Position numbers and translations under genes: made by a program
Assembly: GCA_043805415.1 (NCBI GenBank)
Contig: JAZDHZ010000034.1
Coordinates: 101,478 to 165,477 of the forward strand
DNA: 64,000 nucleotides
Source of the DNA: Candidatus Omnitrophota bacterium
Lineage (GTDB): Bacteria; Omnitrophota; Gorgyraeia; B26-G9
Direction: 5' to 3'
The notes under the pieces: model-generated
Database searches by the model: none
Seen by the model: the letters and a program-made list of their open reading frames with translations, nothing else
Told to the model about the DNA's origin: nothing
Shown: in pieces, positions 11,185 through 47,252 of the stretch
Numbering within the stretch: position 1 is the first letter of the stretch
Layout: every line of letters begins with the position of its first letter

Positions 11185-11185
11185 T

Positions 11186-26244: not shown

Positions 26245-27012
26245 ATGAAAAATCCGCTGCATAACAAAATAATCTGTATGGTTTGCTTATTTATTGCAAT
26301 CAGCAATACTGCTTTACCGGTTTTTGCTTTGAATAATCCGGAATCAAGCCGAAAATATTGCCTTTCCCCGTTTTTACGTATAATCAATTCTGATTTTCAA
26401 TCCAGATTTGAGAGTCTAAACTCTGACTTATTAGACAATAATTTAAACATGCCAGGGGATCTGAAAAGCCGCGCGCTGGTAGTTGGCAGGACAAGCATAA
26501 TTTTTAATAACAAAGAAATGAGCTTTTTTGAATTAACAAAAAGCCTAAACCTTTTACTTGCCAATGATCGATTTACTTACTTTGCCAGAATTGAAAAAGA
26601 TATGGTTAAATATGCGGCATTAAGCACTGTAGAGCAGCTTTTACTTGCTTTAAAGCAGTCAGAATTATCAGAATATGCTGAGCAAATTGATATTATTCTG
26701 GCAATTTTGCATCTTTCCGCTGAAGACGCGGCAATTATCCTTAGCGGCATTGAACCTTTGCAGCAAAAATCAATTACTAATCTTACTGATAAGGCCTGGA
26801 CGAATAAATTCAGAATGAAACGATTCAGCTTAACCATGGGCTATGAGCTTGATATTGCTAAAGCTTGGTATGTTAAAACATTGGAAACAGAGGCTGAGGA
26901 AAGACAGTGGTGGCATGCTATGTGCCGCAATTCAATGCCTATGAATATGTTTAAGGGTTTGAATGCTGATTTGCAGAAAAAAAATCATGGCTTAATTGAT
27001 GCTTCAATTTAA
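26245..27012 (+). CDS. terminal-signature family protein, function unknown
   Basis: Leader 'IICMVCLFIAISNTALPVFA', N-box 'CLSPFLRIINSDFQSRF', tail 'DASI-stop'. Confidence 0.7.
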   Translation: MKNPLHNKIICMVCLFIAISNTALPVFALNNPESSRKYCLSPFLRIINSDFQSRFESLNSDLLDNNLNMPGDLKSRALVVGRTSIIFNNKEMSFFELTKSLNLLLANDRFTYFARIEKDMVKYAALSTVEQLLLALKQSELSEYAEQIDIILAILHLSAEDAAIILSGIEPLQQKSITNLTDKAWTNKFRMKRFSLTMGYELDIAKAWYVKTLETEAEERQWWHAMCRNSMPMNMFKGLNADLQKKNHGLIDASI

Positions 27013-29257: not shown

Positions 29258-32200
29258 ATGAATTATAAACAGAAATCAAAATTCAGGCTGATATTTAGAG
29301 TCATTGCCAGCGTGCTTTTACAGGCATTTTTATTTACAAATTTTGCCTGGTGCGGTGCTGATCAGTTTATTCAAGGCAATACTGTTTGCGCGCCGGCAAT
29401 TAGCAGTACAACTATTTCTCCCGCGATCCAAGTCACTGAAGCTTCAATTCAAACTCTTTTTGTTCAATCCGCCGCGTTCCAAATGGGCAAAAGAGCAGAG
29501 TTTAAAGGCCTTGATTCTTTAAAGCAGGCAGAAGTGGAAAATGCTTTAGGCGATAAATTTAGTTTAAGCCTGAATCTAAAAGGAAAGCTAAACACCGCGT
29601 CAGTTATTCAAAATATCGAAAAAAGAACAGATATCAAAGCGGATTATAAGAAGATCCTAAACGCGATGATCCTTGAATTCGGCAAACTGGATGTTAAGTT
29701 CTATTCATATGAGACATTAGTTGAGGACTTGTTCGGGTTTGCTTCTGCTGGCAATAAGATGATCGCGATTCATTCCTCGGTATTCAGTAATCCGATTGCT
29801 CAGACGCATGAAATCGGGGAATTCTTAGCGCAAGCAGGAATGCTGAATTTTTCGCTTGGCCAGGATGACCAGCTATTGATCAGCTTAAATGGCAGTTTAA
29901 TCGGCAGGATAAAATTATCGGAAGATGCTTTGGCAATCGCGAAGAAAGATCCGTCCAGTAACCATTATTTGCTGCGGGCTTTTCAACGGGAGGTTTTTCA
30001 GGATAAGGATCGGGCTTTAACCGCTGGGATTAAAAACAAGCAGGGGGATTTATCTTCCGCGATGAAAATTTTTCTTAAAACCATAAATGCTGAGACTGGA
30101 AACAAAGTTGAAGCAAGTATGTCTTTGTCTAAACTTAATGACCCGATGTTCGAGGCGCTGTTTAAAGATATTGAGTTTAATCGGTTTTCCGAAAACGATG
30201 CGGCAAAATTAAAGATAGCGATACTATTGCAGAATAACATTGCTATTGAGCCTATTGCTGAACCCTTGCTTCAAGAGTGCGGGATGCTGAATAAGGAATC
30301 CGCTGATCTTTATGAAACCATATTCCCGGCTGCGGGAACTCCTGGTTTTAGCCCAAAAAAATTATTCGCGAAAGAAAATGTTAATCCGGATAATCTGCAT
30401 CTTATCTTTGAATTAGCTAAGCGCTATAGTCCGATTAAAGCGTTTAGCGATAAGTTAGACAGAATCTACCGCGAGCTTGCCTTATACACATTGCCGGTAA
30501 GTCCGGGAGCAAGATATCATATATCTTTGCTTAAAGATCTAAACAGTATTTTATTGTCCGGAGGACGGATTAAAGAATCAAAGCACTCGCTTAGCGGTCA
30601 GGGTGTTTATTTCTTTGAAATGGGAAATTCCGGCTTAGTCAATGCGCAGACACGCTTAGCTGAGTTTTTCCCTTTTATCTCCAGCTCGCCGCATGATCTG
30701 GCAGATGCGGATTATGTGGTTAAGGCGTTCAGGCAAAAGATTGCCCGAGACGCGAAAGATAATGCCCGGATATTCCCGGTTGTAATCCAGGTTGCTGAGG
30801 ATATCCCGGCTGAAGCTGCGATGGGCTGGGCTTTTCGTGAGGATTATAAAAAGGCGGGAAAGCTTATCCGCGATGAACTTAATGCCCAAGAGTATGAATT
30901 TTTAATCAACCTGAATTATTTATATCTTAGCGAGAACCAAGCGGTTAAAAACCATTTGCTCGCGAAAAATATTATTAGAGAAGAAAACGGGATAATCAGG
31001 CTGGTTGATGCTTCGCGGGCGATTCAGGATGAAAACAAAAAGAATACGGGTTGGGCCAGAATGAGATTTGCTGACTTGCGTTATGAAGTGATCAATCTTT
31101 CCTACACAAAGCTGGATAGTGATATCCAGAAGCTTAGCGCCAAGATGGCTCAATTACTCCAGAATCTTCTCGCTGATAAAATGAGCGTATCTTCGGTTGT
31201 GGATACAGGCTCATCAAATCGCGGGCTTACTGTGGAAAATCCGGATTTTGATTTTCTGATTAAAATTAATTCCCCAGAGGATTTTACGGCAATTGTTAAG
31301 CTGCTGCTTGATGAAAAAATATTAGAAAATTTTCTCAAGGAGCATAAAGCTGCTTTTGAAGCGATCTATGGCGATAAGTCCGTGAGTATTGTCACCGAAC
31401 AGCCGCATGCCGTAGGCAAAGGCAATTTATATTTGTTTCCGTTTAAATTTGTCGCGGCTAACCGGATTGTCGGCGGGGTTGATTTTAATTTTTCCAAGCT
31501 TTCAGCGGGAAAAGCCGAGACTTTGAGCTATCACGAGACAGCGCGGCAGCAGCTGCAAGCCATACTGGATAAAGTTCCCGAAGCAGAACAAAAACAGCTT
31601 TCCCGCTATCTTGCCGGAGAAATTAAAACCCTTAAAAAATTAATTATAAATCAGGGTTTATATAAAGATAAGGATACAAAACGAAATAGATTTATCGGCG
31701 TGGCAGTAGAACAAATGATCTACAATCTCAGCGATTATCTGTCTATGCCAAGCAATATTTCCACTGCTGAAATTAAGAGCATATTTTCAATAAAAACCGC
31801 GCTTTATTTAATCAGCCGGATGGAAAGCGAAAGATTAAATGGTCTGTCATTTTCTCTGTATCAAAGAGCAAATGGAAGCGGGTTTTCTAATCAATCGGTA
31901 AAATACGATTTAAGGGATAATGAAAAATCAGTTATCCCTAAAGTTGGGACGGCTTTTGCCGGTTTTAAAGAGTTTTCAGAAGCGGAAAATGCCGGAGTGA
32001 AAAATAAAATTAAAGGATTAATAACTGATTTTATTAGCCGGCCGGGGAATAAGGTAAAAATTATTGAGTTTTTTGCCAGGTACAATAATGAAGTTGACGC
32101 GGCGATTGCTTTAGGTCAGGCGAAACCTTTTAGTAACTGGGAATTTTTTGAAAGATGGGAATTCACGCACCGGTTTTTTACTCTGCATAAAACAGAGATT

Positions 32201-32560
32201 GATATATTCGCGATAGATAAGACTGATATGTCTCAGGACGCGAAGCTGAAAATAGCGGAAATGATCAACGGATTAAAAGCCGGGATAACTGAGTCAATGG
32301 GTGTGAGTGAAGATAAAATTACCGGTCGGGAAATCACGCGGTGGTTTAAAACTCCTTCTTCGCGGAATAAGCAGCTGAGAGATTTTTATTTTCAATATGG
32401 GGCAATAACAGCAGAACCTATATCCATCCTGGGTTTTGCTGGGTTTTTAATGAATATTCCGGCATTGCGTTCGGCAGCTGATGCTGAGCGAAAAGCGGCG
32501 CCTTTAAGCGGTATTATAAACCGCAAGCCGCTCGAACAATTAGTCGGACAGTCAATATGA
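29258..32560 (+). CDS. terminal-signature family protein with PARP-like ADP-ribosyltransferase motif and Pol-beta-type nucleotidyltransferase motif
   Basis: Leader 'MNYKQKSKFRLIFRVIASVLLQAFLFTNFAWC', N-box 'TISPAIQVTEASIQTLF', tail 'GQSI-stop'. Internal 'YHIS..LNSILLSGGRI...SGQGVYFFEM' and 'DTGSSNRGLTVENPDFDFLI'. Confidence 0.85.
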   Translation: MNYKQKSKFRLIFRVIASVLLQAFLFTNFAWCGADQFIQGNTVCAPAISSTTISPAIQVTEASIQTLFVQSAAFQMGKRAEFKGLDSLKQAEVENALGDKFSLSLNLKGKLNTASVIQNIEKRTDIKADYKKILNAMILEFGKLDVKFYSYETLVEDLFGFASAGNKMIAIHSSVFSNPIAQTHEIGEFLAQAGMLNFSLGQDDQLLISLNGSLIGRIKLSEDALAIAKKDPSSNHYLLRAFQREVFQDKDRALTAGIKNKQGDLSSAMKIFLKTINAETGNKVEASMSLSKLNDPMFEALFKDIEFNRFSENDAAKLKIAILLQNNIAIEPIAEPLLQECGMLNKESADLYETIFPAAGTPGFSPKKLFAKENVNPDNLHLIFELAKRYSPIKAFSDKLDRIYRELALYTLPVSPGARYHISLLKDLNSILLSGGRIKESKHSLSGQGVYFFEMGNSGLVNAQTRLAEFFPFISSSPHDLADADYVVKAFRQKIARDAKDNARIFPVVIQVAEDIPAEAAMGWAFREDYKKAGKLIRDELNAQEYEFLINLNYLYLSENQAVKNHLLAKNIIREENGIIRLVDASRAIQDENKKNTGWARMRFADLRYEVINLSYTKLDSDIQKLSAKMAQLLQNLLADKMSVSSVVDTGSSNRGLTVENPDFDFLIKINSPEDFTAIVKLLLDEKILENFLKEHKAAFEAIYGDKSVSIVTEQPHAVGKGNLYLFPFKFVAANRIVGGVDFNFSKLSAGKAETLSYHETARQQLQAILDKVPEAEQKQLSRYLAGEIKTLKKLIINQGLYKDKDTKRNRFIGVAVEQMIYNLSDYLSMPSNISTAEIKSIFSIKTALYLISRMESERLNGLSFSLYQRANGSGFSNQSVKYDLRDNEKSVIPKVGTAFAGFKEFSEAENAGVKNKIKGLITDFISRPGNKVKIIEFFARYNNEVDAAIALGQAKPFSNWEFFERWEFTHRFFTLHKTEIDIFAIDKTDMSQDAKLKIAEMINGLKAGITESMGVSEDKITGREITRWFKTPSSRNKQLRDFYFQYGAITAEPISILGFAGFLMNIPALRSAADAERKAAPLSGIINRKPLEQLVGQSI
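30509..30640 (+). other. PARP/H-Y-E-clade ADP-ribosyltransferase-like signature
   Basis: 'ARYHISLLKDLNSILLSGGRIKESKHSLSGQGVYFFEMGNS' parallels the PARP1 sequence '[20 protein letters not shown]...GKGIYFADMVSKS'. This is pattern recall, not a search. Confidence 0.4.
31190..31265 (+). other. Pol-beta superfamily nucleotidyltransferase signature (GS-x9-12-DxD)
   Basis: 'VVDTGSSNRGLTVENPDFDFLIK'. Confidence 0.45.
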
Positions 32561-32602
32561 ATATTCTCTAGGGCAATATGATTGGGTAAATGGAACAAGA
32601 TA

Positions 32603-35600
32603 ATGAATTATAAAAAATCAAAATTCAGGCTAATCTTTAGAATAATCTCATTAGTGCTTATCCAGGCATTTCTGGTGCTTGATTTTGCCTGGGCAATAGG
32701 CGGAGAATTTCCTATTGCTGATAAAATTTCTCAGGCTGCTACGCTTGCCCCGAAAATTAGTTTAAACACTCAGGAAGTCTGGGATGCTTATGTTTACAGT
32801 TCGCAAAATTCAGCTAAGATCAATGAACTTTCCTTACCTTCTGATCAGCCGATGGTTAATATTCCCAACCAATCTCCCCTGATCAGCCGGAGAGCGTTTT
32901 TCAAAACTGTTGGGCAAAAGGTTATTGGGGCTGCCGCGGTATTAACCGGAGCGGATCTGATATTGTCGGCGCCGGCAGAAGCCAGAGACTTAACCGTGGC
33001 TTTAAGCGATTTAGTGATCAATTTTGATAAAGGGGTTGCTGAAGCGGAGTTAAATAAATATATCGCGATTATTGAAGCTCAGGGTTTTAAAGAGTTATAC
33101 AGTTTAGAAAAAAAACAAGCGCAGACATTAATCAGAATTAAGGGGTTATTCCCGCTGAACGCGGAAAAATTATCTTACGCGCTTAATGCTCAGGCTAAAG
33201 CCAGAGGTCTGGCCAAAGGGTTTGTGGTCACAGCTAGTGACGCGAGCTGGAAGCAATCGCTTACTTATCGGAGCATGCAGGCTTTTGCGAATAAAGTAGC
33301 GCGTCTTTCAGCCAGCCTGGGATTCGGGGAGATCGATTCTCCGCAGCTTATTGGGCTTTATGAGGGGATTACCTGGGTTGAGAGTAAATTTAACCAATGG
33401 GAAACCGATGCCCAGGGCAGAATCAGACCAGTAAGGTCATATACCAATGCTATCGGAGTTACCCAGGTTATAGAATCTCAGGCTGTTAAGCAGATTGCCA
33501 GGTGGATAGTAACGCATAAGGGTGGAATATCCCGCTACGCGGAAATCATGAATGAGCTGGAAAGAATGATTTCCTCTGATAGTGAAAAGCTAAAGAAATC
33601 ACTCAAGGCGAATAAGAAATTCGGGGAAGAAGCCGAAGCCCTGAAACAGTTTAATGTCTATGCTGATTTCGCGGCTTATAAAAATGCCGGATCAGATATT
33701 GAAAAACAAAAACAGATAATTCAACGAATTCACAGAAAGATCAATAGTAATCCTAAGCTTATCGGCGTGAATTTATATTACGCGCTTGCTGTTTGGCAGT
33801 ATTTACAAAACAGGAATAATCTGCGAGCGGGAGTTACCGCTGAGCTTGCCGAATCAATGGGGCAAACCGGACAAGGGCTGACCAGAAAAAATCTTCCGCT
33901 TATTGAATCCGGTTCCGGGGCATATCAGCCAATGGATCTGGAAAAAGCCGGCTTGCAGTTTGAGAGTGATTATTTCCGCTTAAATCTGCTTTATCAAATG
34001 ATTAATCCCGAGAAGATTGCTGAGCTTTTGCAAGGCGCGGAAAGTAAAATATTAGTCAACACCATGGAATACTTATCGCGGCAGATGATGACAAAAATAG
34101 GCAACCAAAAGCTTGGCTATACTTATCTTACGCTGAACTGGGATCGATACCGCCGCCTGGAACTAAGGAAAAATAAAAATAATCAATATGAGTTTACCGA
34201 AAGGCCTTTAAGTTATTTTCAAAATAAGCCTAATGGTTTTTCCGTGAGTCTTGCCGCGGCAGCTTCATATAATTCCGGGACTGGCAGTGTGGACGATGCT
34301 TTGCTGAATTTTGGTAATGCCGTAGACGCGAATAATCTTCCCTTATGGATTAAAAATATGATCGGAGCCAATCCCCAAAATATTCGGGAGCCGATAAATT
34401 ATTTAAGGGTTTTTCTGGAAGATAAGTTTAATAATACCGGAGATCTCTCGGCCCAAGAGCAAAAAATTAAAAACGAGCTTATTGCCGAACGCTATAAACG
34501 CGTTTATAAAATCCAAGACCGATTGCTGGAAAAAAGAGCTTTAATCCACAAAAACAAGGTTCGGATATACGCGGCTTATCGGCGCGATGATGGTTTTGAT
34601 TATAAGCTGGCTGCCTGGGTTGCCCAGATCGCGGGCAGTGATTATGTGGATAGTTTTTTAAGAACCCATGGATTGGATAAAAAATGGCAAGAGGAAATTC
34701 TTAAATCTTCCCAGACACTTGATATTTTAGCACCGGCTTTGGCAGATGTGAATTCGCCGGGATATGCTGCCGCGGTAAATATCCGGCGGTATTTAGATTC
34801 AAAACAGCTGGCTTCTTTGGCTAAGCGGCAAGAAGCCTTTAAGTCTAAAGAACAGGCCCGGATCGCGAGAATTGAACTGGCTAAACAAATATCTAAGGAA
34901 AAACAATGGCAGAAAACCCTGGAGGGAATGACCAGCTGGGCAATGCGTTCCACGGTCGGGGTTGCTTCGCTTGGCGCGGCCGGCGCGATTGCCTGGATTA
35001 TAAACCGCAGGGTCAAGCTGGGTAAAAAACCAGTGCCTTCGCTTATCTATCGGCTGCCATTGCAGGGTTTTTGGATTCTGGGATTTGTTACTGTCCGGCT
35101 GTTCGCGATAGTTGGAAAAATTCTGTTTGGAACCGGTAAATATGTATTCAGCTTTTTTGCTAAAGCAAAACCGCGGATAAATAAACCAAGAAGCGCGCTT
35201 CTTGCCGATCAAAAGGTAGTTAGAAATAACCGGGTTAAACAAGCGGAAAACAGATATAAAAATAAGAACCGCTTTTTTTCAATAGCTAATTTAAAAAAAC
35301 TGATTCTGGGATCAATCTTACTGGCAATAATTGCCTGGCCTTTTGCTTCCCCGGCTTTTTCTCACGCGTCGCAAAAGCAGGCACAAGCTCCTCCGGCAAT
35401 TAGTTTAAGCCAAGAATTTAAAAAAGGCTTAATTGAAATCAGTAAGAAAAGTGACCATAAGCAGCTGAATGCTCAGGGCGAGCTTACCACAATAAAAGCT
35501 AATTTAAAAAAGAATCTTGAATTCAGCAATAGCAAAGCCCGGGAAAGGGTAGAGCAGATCAATCAGTTAGCGGAAAGAAATTGGCAAAAAGCGTATGTTA

Positions 35601-38600
35601 ATGGCGAATTAGATGAATACATAACAAAAAGAGGGCAGTCAGAAGATGCTCTTGCGATTGGCAAGGCGCTGTTTATTTTGCAAAGCGCTGCTCCGGAAAT
35701 TTATCAAGGTTTAAAAAAATATAATGCTTCTATATATCTGGCAGAGATCCCCTTCTATGGTTACGCGCGCGGTTCACGAGTATTTGGGCTTGGCGGCAAA
35801 CCAATGGTATTTGTAAATAAAGATTTTCTGAATAATCCTTTCAAAATCGCGCTTGTTTTATCTCACGAAGGTCATCACGCGATTCTTTTGCCCAAAGATT
35901 TACTGGAATCCGCGCTGCGGTATAATTTTTTTACTTTTATCAGGGATGTATTGTACAGTATTCCCCAGGGGGAAAAAGAAGCTTTCGAGATCCAGGCGGG
36001 AGTGGCCAGAGTTTTTTATATTGAGCCGATAAAAGGAAATATGTCTTATGACCCGCTTGATGTGGAAATTGCTTATGGTAGTCAGAAATGGCAAATAGTT
36101 GGGTTGGATATTTTAGGTACCGGCTTGTTCAATGTTATTCCTTTGATTGCCGGATGGTTAATCCTAAAGTTTTTTATGAATAGCAGCCGCGCTGGAAAAA
36201 GCCGAGATTATCAAAGATCAGGCAGCGGGGGATTGTCTAATCTGATAAACAGCAATTCAAGAAATAACAAGCGTCTGATTAGAAAAGGACGCGGTAAACG
36301 CAAAGGGAATTTCTTTTGGTCAATTATTTTAATCCCTTTGCTTGCTTTTCAATTCAGCAGTTTTCTTAGTCCCGCGATTACTCAAGCAAGTGATGTTTTT
36401 ATCCAGCCTCAGGAGAAAACAGAAATAACCGAGTATAAAAATGAACAGATTATAAATCCGATCCTTGGCACTGATCTTAAAGTAAACTCCCATTTTGGCC
36501 CACAGGAAGGAAAGCATAATAACGCGTTAGCTGATTGGTCCGAGGCGGTGATCAGAGGAGTTATTCAGCCCAACGCGGATATAATCCATGTTGATTTTCA
36601 TGCTGATGATTCCGGCGCGGTAATGGACGCGGATATGCTGGCCTTGAACGAAGTTAAGAATTTAAAAACTTCTCAGGAAAAAATCCAGGCAGTGCGGGAT
36701 ATCGCGGCTCATCTGAGAATAGATTCGTTTTATTACCCGGCTTATTTAACCGGACCAACCGGTCAATCAATATTGGGCACAACCTTTTGGGTTCGTCCGG
36801 AAGCAGAATGGCAGGGCGCGGCGAAAGAGCAATATATTGTCAGTGCTCCCTATGGAACGTTCCCCACGGATCATCCTGAGAAATATCCAAATGACAAGAG
36901 GATCAAAAGGTATGAGCTTAATGCCGATGATTTATCTTTAGTCGGGAAAAATGCTCAGTTAAAAAATGGGTTTATTCTGGACATTGATCTGGATTATTTT
37001 ACTTTGCATCGGGAAGATATGAATTGGGTTTATATGCGGGAGCTGCTTGAAAGAAAAGATGAAGCTTCTCAGAAATTAGCAAAGTCGATTCTTAAGACAG
37101 TCCACTATCAGCCGACCAGGCAGCAGCTGCAAAAAAATATTGATTTGTTTATTGACCAGCTCGCGAAGCTGCATGAACGCGGTATAGACCCGGGAATCAT
37201 TTCTGTTTTTGAATCACCGAATTTTACAGCTTATGCTGATGCTAAATGGGTAAATGACCAGTTAGTAAAGGGGTTCAAAGCTATTTACGGCAAAGGCTCT
37301 GCTTTAGCCGCGAAAGACCAGAAACCAAAGAGCGCGGCAAGCTCTGGCTGGAAAAAAATCTCAATCATGGGATTGGTGTCTGTAATCTCCGCGTCTTTTG
37401 CTAATTTGTTTTCCGTGGCTAATCTCTGGGCCATGGAAAATGGAGCGGATAAGGCTTTTGCTTCCTCTGATTTTAAATCAATAGTAACCTACCTTATCAC
37501 AATCGCCTTAATTGGCTTTTTAGTTAAATCGGGATTAAAAGCGCTTAGTTTAGCTAAACAAAAAAACGCGGAACAGCAGGCCGCGGTGATTGTTCCCAGC
37601 CAGGCGGCTTTGGATAAATTAAAAAAATTAGACACTGACATCAGCGCTTTATTTGCTCAAGGGAAAACTCAGGTTATTATCGCCTTTGACGGTCCCTCCG
37701 GCGCGGGCAAGACAACATTGGCTAATTATATTAAGGCAGTTGGTATTGCCGGAATACAGCCATCTGAAATACAGGTATTGTCGCGTGATGATTACGCGGT
37801 TGGCGGTGATTATAATGAGGCGAATATCGTGATTTTAGAAAAAATCTGGCATCGCGGAAAATTAGTTATTGTTGAGGGCAATGGAATCCAGTGGGCCAGT
37901 GCGGTATTAGCAGCAGATGCCGCGTATGCTAATCCGGATATATTTGTTAAAATAACCGCTGCTGAACAGCTGCGCAAACAAAGGCTATTAGAAAAAGGCT
38001 TGTCAGAGTCAGCGGCAAGTGAGCGGATTAGAACAGCATCTGGTCCTGATTCCGGTTTGTTTGATATTATTATTCAAGATCCTTATATCGAGGTTAACAG
38101 CTTGCGCAAGTCCGCGGAATATATAAAGGCTGAGAGCATATTGCGTTCATATCCTAATGACTCCGGCCTTGCTTTAATTCGTGAATTTGTCTTAGATCAA
38201 ATGCTTAGTTCTGATCGGCGCGGTATTATTGTTTATCATAATGAGCGCCATCTTAATGAGTTGTTTGAGTTTTTTGATGCAATATCAAAGCATTTACCGT
38301 TTAAAAATAAAGCCAGCGCCGAGCGTTTGATCCGCATGGCGATTTATCTGCATGATCTGGGCTACTTTTATTCAGAAGATGGATTGCTTATTCCTGGGCA
38401 TGAACAAAGAAGTAAAGATGAGGTTCTTGAATTTGTTAAGAAAAATCCCGGAATATTGTCCGCGGTTGAAGTCCAGTCGATTATGTATCTGATTGATAAA
38501 ACGCAGCTTAAAACCGGTGACGCGATTAAAAATGAAATCAGCGATGATAATAAAACCTATGACTTGCTGGATCGAATTAATAACGCGCAAGAATCAGGTT

Positions 38601-41542
38601 TAACTGCTGAGGATCAACAGTTTTTAGCAAGTTTTATGGAAAAAAACTTTCCGGACGCGAATCCGCGGAATCCGCGAGACCGGCAGCTGGTGCTGGATAC
38701 TATTTTGGGTGGCAAAGCCTTGGCTTTAGCGGATATCTGGGGCCAGGACCAGACATATCTTTATCAGGTTGCTTTATTAAGTCAGGAATTCCGTTATGAT
38801 AAACAGATAATGCTGAATAATAATGATCCTAACGCAGCCAAAAGCCCGGCAGCTATGAGCAATCTGGAACAGGTCGGGGGAAGCAGCGGATTCCAAAGCT
38901 TTGCTCAAGACATGAGGTTTGTTTTCTTTTTAAATAGCGCGGATTATCCGATGCTGGGCATGCAGCAGTATCTTGACGCGGAACAAAAGGAAAAACAAGC
39001 AAAAGGGGAAAAAGAAAAAGCGCTTATTGACCGCAGAACAGCGATGATTGAAAAGAGCAATCAGGTTCAATCTTTAACCAATGTTTTGACCAGCGGAGTT
39101 GATGAAAACCTTAATATCATCGGCCTGGCTAAAGACACTGATCAGCTTCCTCAGGTTATAGCTTTAAAAGAATTTATCGATGAAGGCCTTGGATTAGGCA
39201 TATACGATGACGCGCAAAAAGCGCAGTTAATCTCGGAAATAAACAGCAGAAACGGACTGATTTTCCGGGGAATAGACAATCAGTTTGATCTAGCGGTAGA
39301 CGCTGCTTACATCGCGGAGCTTGCTCCGACTGTTGATGATATATTAATCAGTTCAAAATTTGCTGAAATTTTAAGTGAGCAGGAATTAGCGGAATTGACT
39401 TCTTCCTGGGAGATTAAGAAGTTTTCTCCTGGTCAAGCGATTGTCCAACAGGATATTCCTGATGCGCAAGGGGTTTTTCTGATCCTATCCGGAAATCTGG
39501 ATGTTTTTGTCAATGGATATCATGTGGGGGAAATTCCTCAGGGTGAGCTGTTTGGGGAAATGTCAGTGCTTGATAGTGCTTTGCGCAGCGCCACTGTAAG
39601 AGTTTCTCAGCTTGCCAGCCAGCAGGCGGTAATCGCGGAAATACCAGCGCCTGTATTCACTAAATTATTCGGGGCAAACCGACAGCTGAAACAAAAGATT
39701 AAAGCCCTGATTCAGACAAGAAAAGAAAATTCGCGAAAGGTTTTGGACGCGGAAGAAGAAAAAGATGATGAAGTAAAATTAAAACATAAATTTGAAAGCG
39801 GCCAGCTGGATACAGTGGTTTTTGTTGATGTTGATCTGATGCGTTTAACCAATCAGTATGTTGCCAAGAAAAATGTGAATGTTTTGCTTGATGTTCTGGA
39901 AACAGAATTTGAAAAAGTGATAAAAGCTCTGGGCGCTGAAAATGCCGTAAGCCTGCGCCGCGGAGGAGATGAATTTATTCTGGCAATTAATTCCCGCGAA
40001 AATAAGCAGCAAGCGATTGATATTGCCGCAAAACTTAAAAATAATGTTCAGAGCGCGAAATTTTCGCTTGCTTCAATCGGAACTGACAGGCTTTCTCAGG
40101 AAAGAATCGCGGAAATCGAAAGTTTTGGATGCGGCATAGACACGATCGGTAAGCATAATATTATAATTGTTGGGCAGAAAACAGGCGGTAAAACAGGCCG
40201 GGCTTGTGTGCAGGAATTTCTCGATACAGTCAATGCCATTAGCAGCTTAAAAAATCCGGAAAACCCGGAAGCGGAAGTTTTAAGCATTCAAAGCTCTTGG
40301 CTGGACCAGCCGGCTGTTAACAATGAAGTTAGTTTTACCTTGTCAATCGGCTTGGCAAATGTATCTGAAATTGACAATGTGCCTGGATCTAATCTTTATG
40401 AAAAAGCGCGCAACTTCGCGGCGCAAAGAAAAGATAAATCAAAAGAAATATTTAAAAAACTCGGAGATGGACATATTGAAGCTGTTTCCAGTTTCGCGCC
40501 CTTGGGCGTGGCTGGGGAGAGTATTCTTTTGACTGAGCAAGCAATTGCTGAGCACGCAGATTTCGAACAGCTGCAGGCTGAAGCTAATCGCCTGGAAGCT
40601 GAGCAAATGGAAGCTGAGCAAATCCCGACAGGCATCAGGCATAAGTTTGCCGAAGGTGAGGAGGTATTGTATTTTTCTTCAGAAAATGCCGCGCGGAGTC
40701 ATCTTAACGCGATGCGAGACAATCAGGAACTTAATGCGGCGATTGCTTTTTCGCTGCAAGGATTGGGTTATTATGATCAGGAAGGAAAGATTGATCAATA
40801 TAAAGCGGAATACTACACTTCCCCTGGGGCAGTTAAAGATAATCGGATAGATATCCGTGATTTTAAAGTGGTTAATGAAGCGCATGGCTATGTGGCGGGT
40901 GATGAAATTATCGCGCGCCTGCGCATCGGCGCGATGCGCTTTGCCAGGTTATTTGAGAACTTTGATCTGGTATTTGCCCGCGGCCCTCCGGCAGGACCAA
41001 ATGGATTTCTTATTCCAAAAACAAAACAAGCCGCTGAAATGAACCCAACAGAAGTGCAGGTAATGTTTGTTGAATATATGCGGCAAATAAGAGATTATTT
41101 TAATAAACCGAATGAATCGGCTGTAAAAGTCGGGCAGTTAAGAGTTGTTTGGGATCGAGTTAGCCAAGAGGATAAAAATATCGGAAATGTGATCGAGCGG
41201 ATTAGTCAGACACGCGCGGTTTATGAACAAAAAACTAAACCGAAAAAAGGCAGAAACATGGTTTTAAGATATGATCCTAGTATCCCGGATAAGTGGAGCT
41301 CATTAGCGGAACTTAATGCCCCGGATGCTGTCGCGCAGCTTGAGAATCTTAAAATTATATGGCAGCAAAATAAGCAGCAGTTAGATGCTTTTGCTAATTC
41401 CCGGAAAGTTAGCGGAACCCTGAGACTTGGCACAAAGATTGATTCCATAGATCCTGGATTGCGCGGACCTGCGTTTTCTCTGCAAGGTGATAATCTTAAT
41501 CAGCAATCAAAAAATATCTCTCTTCTGGAACAAGCGATTTAA
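32603..41542 (+). CDS. 2,979-aa mosaic terminal-signature family protein (SLT / HExxH / arginase-fold-like / P-loop / HD / cNMP-binding / GGDEF x2) with multiple TM segments
   Basis: Leader 'MNYKKSKFRLIFRIISLVLIQAFLVLDFAWA', N-box 'TLAPKISLNTQEVWDAY', tail 'EQAI-stop'. ATG 32603 preferred over TTG 32582 by homology to the 29258 leader. Confidence 0.9.
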   Translation: MNYKKSKFRLIFRIISLVLIQAFLVLDFAWAIGGEFPIADKISQAATLAPKISLNTQEVWDAYVYSSQNSAKINELSLPSDQPMVNIPNQSPLISRRAFFKTVGQKVIGAAAVLTGADLILSAPAEARDLTVALSDLVINFDKGVAEAELNKYIAIIEAQGFKELYSLEKKQAQTLIRIKGLFPLNAEKLSYALNAQAKARGLAKGFVVTASDASWKQSLTYRSMQAFANKVARLSASLGFGEIDSPQLIGLYEGITWVESKFNQWETDAQGRIRPVRSYTNAIGVTQVIESQAVKQIARWIVTHKGGISRYAEIMNELERMISSDSEKLKKSLKANKKFGEEAEALKQFNVYADFAAYKNAGSDIEKQKQIIQRIHRKINSNPKLIGVNLYYALAVWQYLQNRNNLRAGVTAELAESMGQTGQGLTRKNLPLIESGSGAYQPMDLEKAGLQFESDYFRLNLLYQMINPEKIAELLQGAESKILVNTMEYLSRQMMTKIGNQKLGYTYLTLNWDRYRRLELRKNKNNQYEFTERPLSYFQNKPNGFSVSLAAAASYNSGTGSVDDALLNFGNAVDANNLPLWIKNMIGANPQNIREPINYLRVFLEDKFNNTGDLSAQEQKIKNELIAERYKRVYKIQDRLLEKRALIHKNKVRIYAAYRRDDGFDYKLAAWVAQIAGSDYVDSFLRTHGLDKKWQEEILKSSQTLDILAPALADVNSPGYAAAVNIRRYLDSKQLASLAKRQEAFKSKEQARIARIELAKQISKEKQWQKTLEGMTSWAMRSTVGVASLGAAGAIAWIINRRVKLGKKPVPSLIYRLPLQGFWILGFVTVRLFAIVGKILFGTGKYVFSFFAKAKPRINKPRSALLADQKVVRNNRVKQAENRYKNKNRFFSIANLKKLILGSILLAIIAWPFASPAFSHASQKQAQAPPAISLSQEFKKGLIEISKKSDHKQLNAQGELTTIKANLKKNLEFSNSKARERVEQINQLAERNWQKAYVNGELDEYITKRGQSEDALAIGKALFILQSAAPEIYQGLKKYNASIYLAEIPFYGYARGSRVFGLGGKPMVFVNKDFLNNPFKIALVLSHEGHHAILLPKDLLESALRYNFFTFIRDVLYSIPQGEKEAFEIQAGVARVFYIEPIKGNMSYDPLDVEIAYGSQKWQIVGLDILGTGLFNVIPLIAGWLILKFFMNSSRAGKSRDYQRSGSGGLSNLINSNSRNNKRLIRKGRGKRKGNFFWSIILIPLLAFQFSSFLSPAITQASDVFIQPQEKTEITEYKNEQIINPILGTDLKVNSHFGPQEGKHNNALADWSEAVIRGVIQPNADIIHVDFHADDSGAVMDADMLALNEVKNLKTSQEKIQAVRDIAAHLRIDSFYYPAYLTGPTGQSILGTTFWVRPEAEWQGAAKEQYIVSAPYGTFPTDHPEKYPNDKRIKRYELNADDLSLVGKNAQLKNGFILDIDLDYFTLHREDMNWVYMRELLERKDEASQKLAKSILKTVHYQPTRQQLQKNIDLFIDQLAKLHERGIDPGIISVFESPNFTAYADAKWVNDQLVKGFKAIYGKGSALAAKDQKPKSAASSGWKKISIMGLVSVISASFANLFSVANLWAMENGADKAFASSDFKSIVTYLITIALIGFLVKSGLKALSLAKQKNAEQQAAVIVPSQAALDKLKKLDTDISALFAQGKTQVIIAFDGPSGAGKTTLANYIKAVGIAGIQPSEIQVLSRDDYAVGGDYNEANIVILEKIWHRGKLVIVEGNGIQWASAVLAADAAYANPDIFVKITAAEQLRKQRLLEKGLSESAASERIRTASGPDSGLFDIIIQDPYIEVNSLRKSAEYIKAESILRSYPNDSGLALIREFVLDQMLSSDRRGIIVYHNERHLNELFEFFDAISKHLPFKNKASAERLIRMAIYLHDLGYFYSEDGLLIPGHEQRSKDEVLEFVKKNPGILSAVEVQSIMYLIDKTQLKTGDAIKNEISDDNKTYDLLDRINNAQESGLTAEDQQFLASFMEKNFPDANPRNPRDRQLVLDTILGGKALALADIWGQDQTYLYQVALLSQEFRYDKQIMLNNNDPNAAKSPAAMSNLEQVGGSSGFQSFAQDMRFVFFLNSADYPMLGMQQYLDAEQKEKQAKGEKEKALIDRRTAMIEKSNQVQSLTNVLTSGVDENLNIIGLAKDTDQLPQVIALKEFIDEGLGLGIYDDAQKAQLISEINSRNGLIFRGIDNQFDLAVDAAYIAELAPTVDDILISSKFAEILSEQELAELTSSWEIKKFSPGQAIVQQDIPDAQGVFLILSGNLDVFVNGYHVGEIPQGELFGEMSVLDSALRSATVRVSQLASQQAVIAEIPAPVFTKLFGANRQLKQKIKALIQTRKENSRKVLDAEEEKDDEVKLKHKFESGQLDTVVFVDVDLMRLTNQYVAKKNVNVLLDVLETEFEKVIKALGAENAVSLRRGGDEFILAINSRENKQQAIDIAAKLKNNVQSAKFSLASIGTDRLSQERIAEIESFGCGIDTIGKHNIIIVGQKTGGKTGRACVQEFLDTVNAISSLKNPENPEAEVLSIQSSWLDQPAVNNEVSFTLSIGLANVSEIDNVPGSNLYEKARNFAAQRKDKSKEIFKKLGDGHIEAVSSFAPLGVAGESILLTEQAIAEHADFEQLQAEANRLEAEQMEAEQIPTGIRHKFAEGEEVLYFSSENAARSHLNAMRDNQELNAAIAFSLQGLGYYDQEGKIDQYKAEYYTSPGAVKDNRIDIRDFKVVNEAHGYVAGDEIIARLRIGAMRFARLFENFDLVFARGPPAGPNGFLIPKTKQAAEMNPTEVQVMFVEYMRQIRDYFNKPNESAVKVGQLRVVWDRVSQEDKNIGNVIERISQTRAVYEQKTKPKKGRNMVLRYDPSIPDKWSSLAELNAPDAVAQLENLKIIWQQNKQQLDAFANSRKVSGTLRLGTKIDSIDPGLRGPAFSLQGDNLNQQSKNISLLEQAI
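32882..32986 (+). other. internal twin-arginine (Tat)-like signal motif
   Basis: 'ISRRAFFKTVGQKVIGAAAVLTGADLILSAPAEA' has SRRxF(F/L)K, an h-region and AxA, about 95 aa after the protein's own Sec-type leader. Confidence 0.5.
33347..33505 (+). other. lytic transglycosylase (SLT) catalytic motif
   Basis: 'ITWVESKFNQ...SYTNAIGVTQVI' follows the E-S ... GLMQ-type SLT signature. Confidence 0.65.
35251..35440 (+). other. internal copy of the family leader plus N-box module
   Basis: 'RYKNKNRFFSIANLKKLILGSILLAIIAWPFASPAFSHA-SQKQAQAPPAISLSQEFKKGL' has a basic n-region, hydrophobic core, AxA-like site and an 'PAISLSQEF' box. Compare 'DFAWA...TLAPKISLNTQEV' at the true N-terminus. Confidence 0.5.
35864..35878 (+). 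other. HExxH zincin-like motif
   Basis: 'LVLSHEGHHAILLP'. Confidence 0.4.
37691..37717 (+). other. P-loop (Walker A) of a nucleoside/nucleotide-kinase-like domain
   Basis: 'IIAFDGPSGAGKTTLANYI'. Confidence 0.7.
38240..38560 (+). other. HD phosphohydrolase domain
   Basis: 'NERHLNELFEFF ... AIYLHDLGY'. Confidence 0.6.
39421..39610 (+). other. cyclic-nucleotide-binding domain
   Basis: 'FSPGQAIVQQDIPDAQGVFLILSGNLDV...GELFGEMSVLDSALRSATVRV'. Confidence 0.8.
39814..40340 (+). other. GGDEF domain (intact RGGDEF at 39959-39976)
   Basis: 'VVFVDVDLMRLTNQY...SLRRGGDEFILAI'. A second, degenerate GGDEF-like region lies at about 40850-41010 ('FKVVNEAHGYVAGDEIIARL'). Confidence 0.75.
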
Positions 41543-41722: not shown

Positions 41723-43429
41723 TTGATTTTGAACTTAAAATTTCTTAAATGCGCAATGATTTTATTTATGGTTTTTCTCCTGAATACAAAAAATTGCTTT
41801 GCTGATTTGCTTTCTGAATCTTTTCTTAGCCCGGTATCAAATATTGATCTGGGATCATTGCAAAAAACATTTACCTATTTAGTAAATGAGCAAACTTATT
41901 CAGAATATAAAGCAATCTTTGAAATCAATGATCAGGATAAACCGCGGCGCGATCTTAAAGCGCGGGATTTAGAAGATTTTTTACAAGTCATAACCGATAT
42001 TCGCTTGATCCTGGAAATGTTTTCCCAGGGAAATGCGTTTAAAGGAATTATGAACCAGGCAGATAAAGAAACAATAGATGATTTCCTGAGCAATCATCCG
42101 GATGAGATTGAGCTGCTGAAAGATTCAGGAATTAAACCTGTTCTTAGCGCTATCCTTGAGCGCGCTTTGGCGCAGCTGGCTGCAAGGCAAAGAGCGGTCC
42201 CGTCTTTGGCTGAAACCATGTATAAGGAATTAATTTTTAGATTAAAAACAAAGCTGGAAACAGCCGCGGGAATGCTTAAGACAGGCATGCCGATTAAATC
42301 AATCAATTTTAATCAGGAAATACTTTCCTATCTAAAACCAGAAACCCTTAACCGGATAATCGAAAACATTAACTGGCAAAATCAAGACCCTGATGATTAT
42401 AGCGGGCAAAGAAAGATTATTTTAAACCTGGATAAACCAATTGTTTTGGAAAACGGTAAAATAATCAACTCAATTGAAATCAAAGGAGTTGTTTACCGAA
42501 AAGATGAGGTTGCGGTTACTCCTTTACAGGAGAGGTTTAACACAATAAAAGTTCCAAGATTAGACAAAAACAATCTAACTGCTTTGAAAAAAAGAGTACA
42601 TTTAAAAGGCGGAATGCCTTTTGCCGCGGCTAAAAGAGAATATATGATTTTAGAAAAACTTTACGCGCAAGGTAATTACCAGTATGATTATCCCATCGGA
42701 TACGGCAGGTATAAGAATTATACGTTCCAGGGCAAACAATTTGGATTTATCATCACAGGTGTGGAAAATTCAAGGCGAACAAGAATGGGCGACTGGTTTT
42801 TTGATAACTATCAGGAGATTTTTGATTTACTCACGATTGATAAAGTCAGATTCGCTAATTTAGCAGTAGAACTCTTTGAGGTTCATGAAACTTTTCTCAG
42901 GCATTATGGCCGGGAGTTGCGGAGGTTTCATGACAGCGGATTTTATCATGGTTATCCGCATACTTTAAATGTAAGCTGGGATAAAGAATTTAAAAATATC
43001 GTGCTTAATGATTTTGAAGCCAGCAAGCTGATTTCCCATTTGCCTGTTGAAAAAAGAGTTGGCTACCGATTGATAGATCTAAGCTCGGCTTATGCCCATT
43101 TTATTTACTTTCTTACCAATGATCGGGATTTAATGGAACTAGCGGCGTTTTCCGAAGGCATGAATCATCTGAATAATCCTTTTCGCTATTTTCTTCAGGG
43201 GTATTTTGGCAATGATTTGCCAAATTTTAATTTTGATGGTTTTATGAGTGAAGCTATTTATCCGGCGGTTGTGTCCGGGGTAGATGTGATTAATGACCTG
43301 GATCAGGATATTGTGAGTAAACTTTTGAATATTGAAGGCGCGGATTATAAGCGAGTTAAGTATATTGATCAAATTGTTTTTGATGCGCAGGGCTTTGTAA
43401 ATGAACTTGCCTGTCAAGAAGCGATCTAG
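41723..43429 (+). CDS. terminal-signature family protein with atypical protein-kinase-like (Kdo/WaaP-like) motif
   Basis: Leader 'FLKCAMILFMVFLLNTKNCFA', N-box 'FLSPVSNIDLGSLQKTF', tail 'QEAI-stop'. 'FHDSGFYHGYPHTLNV...VLNDFEAS' resembles the HGD.H..N / DF(G) kinase core. The start is TTG 41723 or 41729, after a GAGGAG Shine-Dalgarno sequence. Confidence 0.75.
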   Translation: MILNLKFLKCAMILFMVFLLNTKNCFADLLSESFLSPVSNIDLGSLQKTFTYLVNEQTYSEYKAIFEINDQDKPRRDLKARDLEDFLQVITDIRLILEMFSQGNAFKGIMNQADKETIDDFLSNHPDEIELLKDSGIKPVLSAILERALAQLAARQRAVPSLAETMYKELIFRLKTKLETAAGMLKTGMPIKSINFNQEILSYLKPETLNRIIENINWQNQDPDDYSGQRKIILNLDKPIVLENGKIINSIEIKGVVYRKDEVAVTPLQERFNTIKVPRLDKNNLTALKKRVHLKGGMPFAAAKREYMILEKLYAQGNYQYDYPIGYGRYKNYTFQGKQFGFIITGVENSRRTRMGDWFFDNYQEIFDLLTIDKVRFANLAVELFEVHETFLRHYGRELRRFHDSGFYHGYPHTLNVSWDKEFKNIVLNDFEASKLISHLPVEKRVGYRLIDLSSAYAHFIYFLTNDRDLMELAAFSEGMNHLNNPFRYFLQGYFGNDLPNFNFDGFMSEAIYPAVVSGVDVINDLDQDIVSKLLNIEGADYKRVKYIDQIVFDAQGFVNELACQEAI

Positions 43430-46275: not shown

Positions 46276-46731
46276 ATGGAAAAAAAAATCATTGCGTCTA
46301 ATAAGCGGGCAGCGCATCGCTATGAGATTATTGAAAAAATCGAAGCTGGCATTGAATTGCAAGGCACAGAGGTTAAATCACTCAGAGCCAATCAGGTTGA
46401 CTTAAAAGACAGCTTTGCCAGAATTGACGGCGGACAGATTTTTTTGCATAGTTTATACTTAAGTCCCTATGAAAAAGCAAGTTATAATAATGCTGATCCC
46501 AAAAGAGTCAGAAAGCTTTTACTGCATAAAAAGCAGATTACCAAGCTGTTTGCGAAAATGCGGGAAAAAGGCTATACTTTAATAGCTTTGAATATTTACT
46601 TTAATGATAAAGGCCGGGCAAAAGTCGAACTGGCTTTGGCCAAAGGCCGCAAATTGTACGATCAGCGGGAAAAGATTAAAGATAAAGAAACTGAACAGCG
46701 TTTGCGCAAGATAAGCAGCATTCGGAAATAA
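46276..46731 (+). CDS. smpB: SsrA-binding protein SmpB
   Basis: 'NKRAAHRYEIIEKIEAGIELQGTEVKSLR' and a basic C-terminal tail. Adjacent to tmRNA. Confidence 0.95.
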   Translation: MEKKIIASNKRAAHRYEIIEKIEAGIELQGTEVKSLRANQVDLKDSFARIDGGQIFLHSLYLSPYEKASYNNADPKRVRKLLLHKKQITKLFAKMREKGYTLIALNIYFNDKGRAKVELALAKGRKLYDQREKIKDKETEQRLRKISSIRK

Positions 46732-46819: not shown

Positions 46820-47252
46820 GGGGGTGAAGGGTTTCGACTTATGTGGATGTTATAAGGGCAGCATGTCGAGGTGGTCGGGAGGCCTCGTTAAACACCTGGC
46901 AAAATAATAAATGCTGAAACTAAAGTTCCAGTAAGTGTAGATGCACTTCTTGAGAGAATTGGATCGGGCATTGCTCATCCGACTTTCACAGGATTTGTAC
47001 CTGCAGCAGTGTTACTTTAATAAAATAAAGTAACCCGTTTTTTGGCCTTTTGTCTGGGGGGTCAGAGAACGTCATTTACAGGCTCGCTTTACCTGGTTGG
47101 TTTTTGACAGGTAAGGTTAAACACTCAAAAGCTGCCTGTTTAAGTACCTCGCCTATTGGGGATTTAAACAGAAAGATAAACAATAGGCTAAACATGTAGA
47201 TACTCTTATTTGTCGCTTAAGGACGCGAGTTCGATTCTCGCCACCTCCACCA
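46820..47252 (+). ncRNA. ssrA: tmRNA (SsrA), about 433 nt
   Basis: 5' GGGGGUGAAGGGUUUCGAC. The 3' end is the tRNA-like GGACGCGAGUUCGAUUCUCGCCACCUCCACCA, and the acceptor GGGGGUG/CACCUCC pairs. Internal tag frame GCU(46913)...UAAUAA(47018-23). Confidence 0.9.

Follow-up and report, generated by a model that had tools for sequence, protein, structure and literature searches.

Proteins of 10,000 to >100,000 amino acids (aa) with many transmembrane helices and a mosaic of divergent domains, including GGDEF domains, are known in the Omnitrophota from two preprints. Cell-wall-directed functions and possible proteolytic processing of these giant proteins were discussed, and one of the two preprints treats internal signal-peptide calls as artifacts (bioRxiv 10.1101/2023.11.21.568195; bioRxiv 10.64898/2026.06.07.730766). 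Here we describe a gene of a Candidatus Omnitrophota bacterium that encodes a mosaic protein of 2,979 aa. The gene lies on the + strand at positions 32603 to 41542 of a 64-kb stretch of contig JAZDHZ010000034.1, referred to as the window. All coordinates are positions in the window, all features of the gene lie on the same strand, residues are numbered from the ATG at 32603, and "the Omnitrophota protein" denotes the 2,979-aa product. This protein resembles the giant proteins in its phylum, in having a signal peptide and many helices, in its patchwork of enzyme and signaling domains with GGDEF, and in its cell-wall-directed domains, and differs from them in being far shorter (2,979 aa versus >10,000 to 100,000 aa). 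Pfam and NCBIfam scans of the Omnitrophota protein found no SecA-DEAD, C39, or S8 domains. The mosaic architecture itself is not new, and the present protein is a small relative of the giant-protein phenomenon.

The open reading frame (ORF) is uninterrupted from 32582 to 41542, with its first ATG at 32603. GC content is even along the ORF (0.41 to 0.42), and there are zero internal stops over 8.9 kb at 42% GC. The product is identical to that of an NCBI entry, [quoted passage not shown] encoded on a contig of 169.5 kb. A relative from an independent assembly, P0002 (2,855 aa; Logan SRR21677147), is collinear with residues 1 to 2932 at 52% identity, and its locus is syntenic with the window (TPR/Peptidase_MA_2, radical SAM, family genes, GH116, and SmpB). 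A single ORF was present at all three syntenic loci, with differing cassette content. Because P0002 is a collinear single ORF in the same neighborhood, misassembly or accidental gene merging is very unlikely. There was no in-frame start codon upstream of the fifth of the nine hydrophobic segments (H5), and the sole candidate before H7 was a TTG at aa 1211, preceded by a weak G-rich stretch, making nested internal-start genes unlikely. An earlier interpretation made without database searches (the sequence-only reading) had proposed a single mosaic ORF with at least six hydrophobic segments. The unbroken frame, the NCBI identity, and P0002 bear out the single ORF, each of the motifs listed in that reading was found at its place, and the hydrophobic segments number nine.

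We consider it probable that this is a genuine single gene for a polytopic inner-membrane protein and that it belongs to an Omnitrophota-specific, cassette-shuffling family whose cassettes preserve topology. Each outward cassette would consist of its own signal-peptide-like start-transfer helix, an enzyme-like domain, and a return helix, followed by a strongly basic loop in the cytoplasm. Three such modules are present: A (ferredoxin-like plus split SLT-like, where SLT denotes a family-1 lytic-transglycosylase-like domain), B (zincin-like HExxH), and C (UPF0489/arginase-like). The start helix of cassette A would be of the twin-arginine translocation (Tat) type and those of cassettes B and C of the Sec/signal-peptidase type. 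Each cassette would cross the membrane twice, entering and leaving once, so that its gain or loss would leave the downstream topology intact, which would explain the free recombination of cassettes. The last ~1,330 residues would be cytoplasmic and would comprise, in this order, P-loop kinase-like, HD-type, and cyclic-nucleotide (cNMP)-binding domains and two domains of the GGDEF type, the first with its signature intact and the second degenerate. In such a protein, envelope-facing (peptidoglycan- or peptide-directed) activity or sensing could be linked to a cNMP-modulated cyclic di-GMP (c-di-GMP) output.

The topology model is based on charge bias, counted as lysine plus arginine (K+R) in the 15 residues flanking each hydrophobic segment in 16 proteins. 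The signal-like segments have 4 to 9 K+R on the N-terminal side and 0 to 1 on the C-terminal side, and the alternation is regular in the 16 proteins. The bias is reversed for H3, for H6, and for the last of the helices, just ahead of the cytoplasmic domains. The loops that join a return helix to the next signal-like helix are extremely basic. We infer that the signal-like segments are in-to-out helices and that H3, H6, and the last helix are return helices. The alternating bias would therefore place A, B, and C outside and the kinase-like, HD, cNMP-binding, and GGDEF domains inside, the side that their nucleotide substrates demand. The sequence-only reading had suggested that the internal segments might act as re-entrant anchors; the anchor half of this suggestion is now the better supported one, and the segments fit ordinary spanning in-to-out helices, not re-entrant ones.

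Membership in the family is marked by three elements, each present once in the Omnitrophota protein: a leader of the form LIQAFL..(D/N)xAWA, an N-box at aa 36 to 52, and a C-terminal x[AS]I. The leader, H1 (32603 to 32698; aa 1 to 32; MNYKKSKFRLIFRIISLVLIQAFLVLDFAWA), is conserved in 23 family N termini; it is strongly hydrophobic (Kyte-Doolittle hydropathy [KD], 2.3 to 2.6), with a basic tip and AWA at its end. The leader region had no model in Pfam or NCBIfam. The N-box reads TLAPKISL (32741 to 32764; aa 47 to 54); the family pattern, [T]L[AS]PxLx[LI], occurs once per family protein at the fixed position aa 36 to 52. The tail EQAI (41528 to 41539) is of the x[AS]I-COOH type that ends every complete family protein examined; in each complete member, the leader, the N-box, and the x[AS]I C terminus occur exactly once. 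Keyword searches of the two preprints on giant proteins gave no mention of a signal-bearing, topology-preserving shuffling cassette, an internal Tat-type signal, or the leader/N-box/x[AS]I signature. No mention of Tat was found in PMC10066038.

Segments of the Omnitrophota protein were mapped onto all retrieved relatives. About 20 family proteins contain modules A, B, or C, alone or combined in some other way; every one of them has a single leader and a single x[AS]I tail. The order in the Omnitrophota protein, A-B-C-K-HD-cNMP-GG1-GG2 (K, P-loop kinase-like; GG1 and GG2, the two GGDEF-type domains), recurs in P0002, in which module C is degenerate. The other architectures that contain module B are X-B-K-HD-cNMP-GG1-GG2 in P0013 (X, an unrelated module), B-K-HD-cNMP-GG1-GG2 in P0005, B-GG1-GG2 in P0012, B-C'-GG1-GG2 in P0008 (C', degenerate module C), B-K in P0014, B-HD in P0007, and B plus an HD' region (HD', the HD region of the P0003 type) in P0009. 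Module C is found as X-C-HD in P0006 and alone in P0010 (486 aa). Module A is found as A-C' in P0034, alone in P0038 (1,051 aa), and as A-HD'-GGDEF' in P0003, the gene of locus L004 (2,019 aa; GGDEF', the P0003/L004-type GGDEF-like region). At the third syntenic locus, L009 (JGI Ga0180007_10001568, positions 7109 to 11695), the gene encodes A-GG1-GG2 (1,528 aa). The L009 protein shares 75% identity with the L004 protein over its N-terminal half and 75% with P0002 over its C-terminal half. The L009 gene is clearly a recombinant of family paralogues and attests directly that family genes recombine. The architectures in the census are paralogous and are not split orthologues. A genome-contig scan with the Omnitrophota protein as the sole query found nothing, the scan with the module-A alignment found only L004, and a metagenome scan found only L009.

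In cassette A, the start helix is H2 (32879 to 32992; aa 93 to 130), a Tat-like internal signal that combines SRRAFFK with a core of weak hydrophobicity and with APAEA, after which comes RD. SRRAFFK at aa 95 to 101 matches the S/T-R-R-x-F-L-K Tat consensus, and the relatives have SRREFFK, GRRTFLK, SRRNFFR, or DRRGFLK. RR-x-F-[FL]-K was kept in five of the seven module-A proteins examined, together with low hydrophobicity and a basic residue after AxA. The KD of H2 is 1.7 to 1.9, compared with 2.1 to 3.1 for the leader and the H5-type segments. H2 does not occupy the N-terminal position usual for a Tat signal: it starts at aa ~93, after the hydrophobic leader, and in P0004 it lies at aa ~1030. 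The mechanistic precedents that come closest are viral polyproteins, taken up below, and dual Sec-Tat polytopic proteins such as the actinobacterial Rieske protein Sco2149; the latter proteins share with H2 an internal RR motif, a helix of low hydrophobicity, and positive charge on the C-terminal side, a set of properties shown to hand a helix from Sec to Tat (PMC3471235, PMC5449189). In those proteins the Tat helix comes last, after an even number of Sec helices, while just one hydrophobic leader precedes H2, and a further seven hydrophobic segments and 2,800 residues lie beyond it.

The outward part of cassette A is predicted to begin with a small ferredoxin-like/PII-like domain (32999 to 33241; aa ~133 to 213). 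It was the sole confidently modeled part in AF2 with local Foldseek matches (probability, 0.94 to 0.99 over ~80 aa). The split SLT-like domain follows (33248 to 34948; aa 216 to 782), with the motifs WVES (aa 258 to 261), GVTQ (aa 285 to 288), NQKLGYTYL (aa 501 to 509), and SYNSG (aa 555 to 559) and with an insert of ~210 aa separating motif II from motif III. The alignment of module A shows no variation at WVE260S261 and G285VTQ288, which align to the ES and GLMQ of Slt70, MltC, MltD, and MltE. Pfam SLT matched at the same place, the NQKLGYTYL and SYNSG motifs, in the Omnitrophota protein, P0002, and P0038, each time below threshold (14.3 to 16.3 bits versus 21.3). A five-sequence module-A alignment was compared by hhalign with the catalytic domains of E. 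coli Slt70, MltE, MltD, and MltC. Two collinear local matches were obtained, VES...GVTQ with ES...GLMQ and NQKLGYTYL...SYNSG with N..G..YL...AYNAG. After excision of ~180 residues between them, the match reached a probability of 85.7% (E, 5e-6; score, 41.7), compared with a score of 15.2 ± 4.0 (maximum, 18.6) for 60 random-splice controls; because the splice was picked after the local matches had been seen, this result is support and not proof. A profile-versus-PDB sequence search with module A gave nothing significant. Module A thus shares with family-1 lytic transglycosylases (Slt70, MltC, MltD, and MltE; PF01464) the four motifs in order, E-S, G-x-x-Q, N..G..YL, and (A/S)YN(A/S)G, and differs from them in its ~210-residue insert, its subthreshold Pfam score, and its lack of a confident model. 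The putative SLT (lytic transglycosylase) identity of module A is moderately supported. Coupling of an outward lytic-transglycosylase-like domain to the c-di-GMP and cNMP modules is plausible, and it depends on this assignment. From positive-inside counts, cassette A would end with the return helix H3 (aa 784 to 801), the amphipathic H4 (aa 820 to 844), and a very basic loop (34952 to 35134). H4 is absent in P0004 and P0038.

Cassette B is introduced by the first internal signal-like segment, which is H5-type (aa 884 to 923; flanking K+R, 6 versus 1); together with the conserved box QAQAPPAISL (aa 926 to 935), it occupies 35252 to 35407. The domain that follows (module B, 35372 to 36094; aa 924 to 1164) has HEGHH at aa 1088 to 1092, exactly at 35864 to 35878, with the HExxH predicted to lie on a helix within an alpha/beta zincin core. 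Profiles or a model suggest the zincin-like HExxH identity of module B; a profile-versus-PDB sequence search with this module gave nothing significant. The return helix H6 (aa 1165 to 1190; flanking K+R, 1 versus 4) and a basic cytoplasmic loop (aa 1191 to 1236) occupy 36095 to 36310, and the loop has 9 K+R in the 15 aa N-terminal to H7. The module-B domain was also observed deep within P0019, P0028, P0029, P0030, and P0032 (4,067 to 7,071 aa), which have no x[AS]I tail and whose C termini are ..AA, ..SL, or ..KA. Its presence there links the family to truly giant proteins.

Cassette C begins with the second internal signal-like segment, which is H7-type (36260 to 36388; aa 1220 to 1262) and ends in SPAITQA followed by SD. 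Module C itself (36512 to 37012; aa 1304 to 1470) is a UPF0489/peptide-arginase-like domain with HVDFHADD at aa 1329 and DIDLDYF at aa 1460. Pfam UPF0489 (PF12640) matched with 30.1 bits versus a cutoff of 27 in a scan of a 410-aa segment and with 25.3 bits in the full-length scan. The NCBIfam family pept_arginase (NF052474) matched with an E value of 7e-11, yet at 42.2 bits it stayed below the cutoff of 350. PDB 8brp matched module C with an E value of 1e-4. The similarity to UPF0489/peptide arginase (FlmR/OhkR family; PDB 8brp) is significant over ~165 residues and includes the His/Asp-rich motifs; the differences are that module C lies between transmembrane segments, probably facing outward, and is degenerate in the closest orthologue. 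Relatives of the stand-alone type are P0010 and P0006. HVDFHADD and DIDLDYF (window positions 36587 to 37000) were intact in the Omnitrophota protein, P0006, and P0010. Module C was too degenerate to recognize in P0002, P0008, and P0034, and both motifs were visibly lost in P0002, whose module C region is only 14 to 32% identical to that of the Omnitrophota protein.

Beyond cassette C, H8 (aa 1586 to 1606; probably nonspanning), a conserved ANLWAMENG loop, and the return helix H9 (aa 1624 to 1646) extend from 37358 to 37540. H8 is taken as nonspanning because P0013, P0012, P0007, and P0009 have a single helix at the H8/H9 position ahead of the same cytoplasmic domains. The first of these domains is a P-loop nucleoside/nucleotide-kinase-like domain (37628 to 38092) with GPSGAGKTT at aa 1697 to 1705. 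It matched AAA_18 with an E value of 1.6e-4, below the Pfam cutoff, and NCBIfam kinase families with E values of 4e-6 to 1e-3; in P0014 it is paired with module B alone. The HD-type domain (38210 to 38902) has YHNERH at aa 1878 and YLHDLGY at aa 1915, with H1880 and H1917-D1918 present, and the region is conserved in seven family proteins. YHNERH...YLHD (window positions 38234 to 38365), just upstream of the cNMP-binding domain, resembles the signature of class-I cyclic-nucleotide phosphodiesterases. A profile-versus-PDB search with the HD region gave nothing significant, its sole match being a phosphodiesterase with an E value of 1.5, and the possible resemblance to class-I phosphodiesterases is only a lead.

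The cNMP-binding domain (39332 to 39682; aa ~2244 to 2360) matched PF00027 with 37 to 39.8 bits versus 27.5 and the cNMP-binding domains of PKG in the PDB with an E value of 6e-13. GGDEF domain 1 (39791 to 40522) has an intact RRGGDEF at aa 2452 to 2458 and a divergent N-terminal half. Pfam GGDEF (PF00990) gave it 28.9 bits in the C-terminal fragment and 23.1 bits alone versus 23.8, and NCBIfam GGDEF gave an E value of 1e-5. In the half that canonically binds nucleotide and metal, DVDLMRLTN is present and GH..GD is absent. GGDEF-like domain 2 (40700 to 41242) keeps DIRDFKVVNEAHGYVAGDE, has its signature replaced by RGPPAGP, and contains AGDEI at aa 2765. In the profile-versus-PDB search, 9 of its 14 matches were to diguanylate cyclases at the DxDxFKxxNDxxGHxxGD motif (E, 0.04 to 1.5). 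Among described systems, membrane diguanylate cyclases such as DgcN/YfiN, which gave weak NCBIfam matches, likewise combine an extracytoplasmic N-terminal part and transmembrane helices with a cytoplasmic GGDEF output. In the present protein, the outward parts would be three enzyme-like domains in place of a ligand-binding sensor, and P-loop kinase-like, HD-type, cNMP-binding, and second, degenerate GGDEF-like domains are added to the output.

The two internal signal-like segments have the features expected of signal peptidase I substrates: a basic n-region (flanking K+R, 6 to 9 versus 1), a hydrophobic h-region, a helix breaker near -6, and small residues at -3 and -1. In the H5-type c-region (13 homologues), a Pro is invariant, the residues at -3 and -1 are small, -1 is A or T in 11 of 13, and Q-A-x-A-P-P follows. 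In the H7-type c-region (16-sequence alignment), Ala is found at -1 in 15 of 16 and S, T, or A at -3 in 14; Pro is found at -6 in 11, with Asn-Pro at -7/-6. P0002 keeps both segments, as SFSHAS.KQAQAPPAISL and SIILIPL..QFS.F..PAITQA. To judge from these alignments, both segments are more than generic transmembrane helices, and their c-region is predicted to be of the classical signal-peptidase-I type.

These c-regions raise the question of cleavage. The protein could be a membrane polyprotein that signal peptidase I cuts at the internal signal-like segments, after AEA (aa ~127), SHA (aa 922), and TQA (aa 1261), so that four pieces would each be anchored on their own: the leader/N-box as a peptide, A plus its return helices, B plus its hairpin, and C joined to the cytoplasmic domains. 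All three segments have the full n-h-c organization, and conservation of the c-regions (Ala at -1 of H7 in 15 of 16; the invariant Pro of H5) far exceeds what a plain anchor needs. The conserved QAQAPPAISL starts 3 residues past the predicted H5 site, as a new N terminus might, and for giant Omnitrophota proteins, processing into smaller polypeptides has been proposed, not shown (bioRxiv 10.1101/2023.11.21.568195). On the other hand, uncleaved signal anchors can also tolerate the -3/-1 pattern, and a literature search returned no case in bacteria of a protein that signal peptidase cuts at several internal sites. The single ORF and the module order kept in the orthologue suggest that physical linkage matters. 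We regard processing of this kind as unlikely, if the likeliest of the alternatives. Viral polyproteins of the flavivirus type have internal signal peptides that are cut by host signal peptidase. In both cases one ORF encodes outward domains that are each preceded by an internal signal with a -3/-1 motif and followed by a stop-transfer helix; here the gene is bacterial and chromosomal, the modules are enzymes and signaling domains and not virion proteins, and cleavage is only predicted. An extended form of this idea, for which our expectation is lower again, is a precursor threaded by Sec and Tat and cut at three internal signal peptides. It would yield an anchored lytic-transglycosylase-like enzyme, a zincin-like enzyme, and an arginase-like receptor/cyclase, with cassettes as the unit of shuffling and with the leader/N-box and x[AS]I marking an undescribed sorting or quality-control route.

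The sequence-only reading held that two internal stretches mimic the family N terminus and that the ORF might be a fusion of three or more ancestral family genes. If at least three complete family genes had been fused head to tail, the internal stretches would be degenerate leaders. Tandem clusters of family genes would favor such a fusion, as would the finding of A, B, and C in separate family genes with their own leaders and tails; separate genes had been sought as a sign of it, and A is found alone in P0038, B with little else in P0014 and P0007, and C alone in P0010. A 23-sequence leader hidden Markov model (HMM) also weakly matched H7-type segments of other proteins, with 9.0 and up to 16.4 bits (decoy maximum, 3.7). 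With the same HMM, the internal segments of the Omnitrophota protein scored no better than reversed decoys. Profiles of the leader, H5-type, and H7-type segments scored 33 to 79 bits on their own class (57 to 79 for leader and H5-type), and across classes H5-type versus leader gave ≤5.4 bits, the few H7-type segments mentioned above being the highest. The N-box pattern was absent from the internal modules across family proteins, and no internal x[AS]I remnant was found in the Omnitrophota protein. Proteins with a single module have the true leader and N-box first and then the module's own signal-like helix at about residue 80 to 125; because they hold both, the internal helix predates any fusion. 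The leader HMM, the absence of the N-box, and the single-module proteins rule out the internal stretches as copies of the family N terminus, and fusion of complete family genes is largely refuted and, in our estimate, improbable. What stands of the original proposal is that the protein is a true mosaic of family modules and that both stretches are present, conserved, and signal-peptide-like; their likeness to the leader comes down to a generic n-h-c organization, and they are not relic N termini. The nucleotide starts first given for them were 2 nt out of frame, which is immaterial. The outcome named in advance as counterevidence, a single ORF in all relatives with unconserved internal modules, was found in part: no split orthologue was seen among the three syntenic loci, but the internal modules are conserved in P0002. 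The best reading of the "leader-like" stretches is that they are the start-transfer helices of cassettes B and C and not leftovers of fused gene starts.

The leader itself appears to behave differently. Some window members have no hydrophobic segment besides the leader. Among them are found a GH77 4-α-glucanotransferase (E, 4e-77), an N-terminal domain of the glucan-water-dikinase type, and a Rossmann methyltransferase motif, and P0011 has a methyltransferase-like stretch between the leader and its H5-type helix. These proteins hint that the polypeptide after the leader and N-box stays cytoplasmic and therefore that the leader is not an ordinary export signal. At window positions 32603 to 32992 and in all family N termini, the leader looks in-to-out and so does the signal-like helix after it, yet no return helix separates the two.

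Several points weigh against the cassette topology model. If the leader is in-to-out, the next signal-like helix cannot be in-to-out too. With the leader counted as spanning, the helices ahead of the cytoplasmic-type domains add up to an odd number (three in P0014; five in P0007, P0009, and P0012), and both H4 and H8 must be assumed to be nonspanning. The RR motif is lost from H2 in the L004 and L009 genes, where the helix is more hydrophobic, and H2 of the L009 gene also lacks the flanking charge bias. The SLT assignment needed a post hoc splice, chosen once the local matches were known. The AF2 model of module A, built from a four-sequence alignment, was poor (pLDDT, 57.5; catalytic stretch, <50), and Foldseek found in that model, with its catalytic region at pLDDT <50, no meaningful match for a lysozyme-like fold. 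UPF0489-type enzymes are normally cytoplasmic, and an outward module C would be unusual. Pfam HD (PF01966) gave 14.7 to 15.9 bits versus a cutoff of 22, and GGDEF-like domain 2 was below the Pfam threshold (E, 0.11). Of the domains first called by eye, the cNMP-binding, UPF0489, and first GGDEF domains thus pass Pfam, and the SLT, HD, and second GGDEF domains fall below threshold. Finally, the linkage of envelope-facing activities or sensing to a cNMP-modulated c-di-GMP output is, for the whole protein, a matter of inference only.

The parity problem would disappear if the whole family were exported effectors, secreted via the leader, perhaps with the tail, with a prey or host cell as the place of action, inside it or at its surface. 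Insertion of the hydrophobic segments would then be into the target membrane, where ATP, GTP, and S-adenosylmethionine are available. Omnitrophota have been proposed to be predatory or parasitic (PMC10066038), and the leader-only members carry GH77, the glucan-water-dikinase-like N-terminal domain, and the S-adenosylmethionine-methyltransferase-like motif. All of this support is indirect, insertion into the producer's own membrane would be expected to give just such a regular positive-inside alternation, and no secretion-system genes were identified adjoining the gene; we consider export of this kind highly improbable. Merging of neighboring genes through misassembly or sequencing error, conceivable for a metagenome-assembled genome, has a near-negligible chance of being correct given the collinear single ORF of the independent assembly, the likewise single ORF at the third syntenic locus, the 8.9 kb without an internal stop, and the lack of a convincing internal start site.

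The family is large and tandemly clustered in the window, with further members at 6256 to 11184, 11183 to 15142, 26245 to 27012, 29258 to 32560, 41723 to 43429, 48991 to 51357, and 53147 to 55489. The same leader/N-box/x[AS]I family was also found among the neighbors at L001, L004, and L009. Its passengers are very diverse and include GH77, glucan-water-dikinase-like, and methyltransferase domains in addition to A-, B-, and C-type cassettes. A transfer-messenger RNA (tmRNA) gene at 46820 to 47252 adjoins smpB (46276 to 46731), and the tag predicted for it by ARAGORN, ALLERIGSGIAHPTFTGFVPAAVLL, is atypical. The predicted tag is unlike the x[AS]I tail, and a connection of this tail with tmRNA tagging was therefore rejected.

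Large mosaic membrane proteins are a hallmark of the Omnitrophota, and this locus and its ~20 relatives give a concrete building rule for them: an outward domain travels with its own signal-like and return helices, so that modules can be swapped with topology undisturbed. The locus also offers testable predictions in three exact candidate cleavage sites, an internal Tat signal, and an oddly behaving leader. If the internal sites are cleaved, viral polyproteins that signal peptidase processes would have a bacterial counterpart in this protein. If the sites stay uncut, the protein would still be a compact model of the wiring between envelope-directed enzymes and c-di-GMP and cNMP signaling in uncultured, possibly predatory bacteria.

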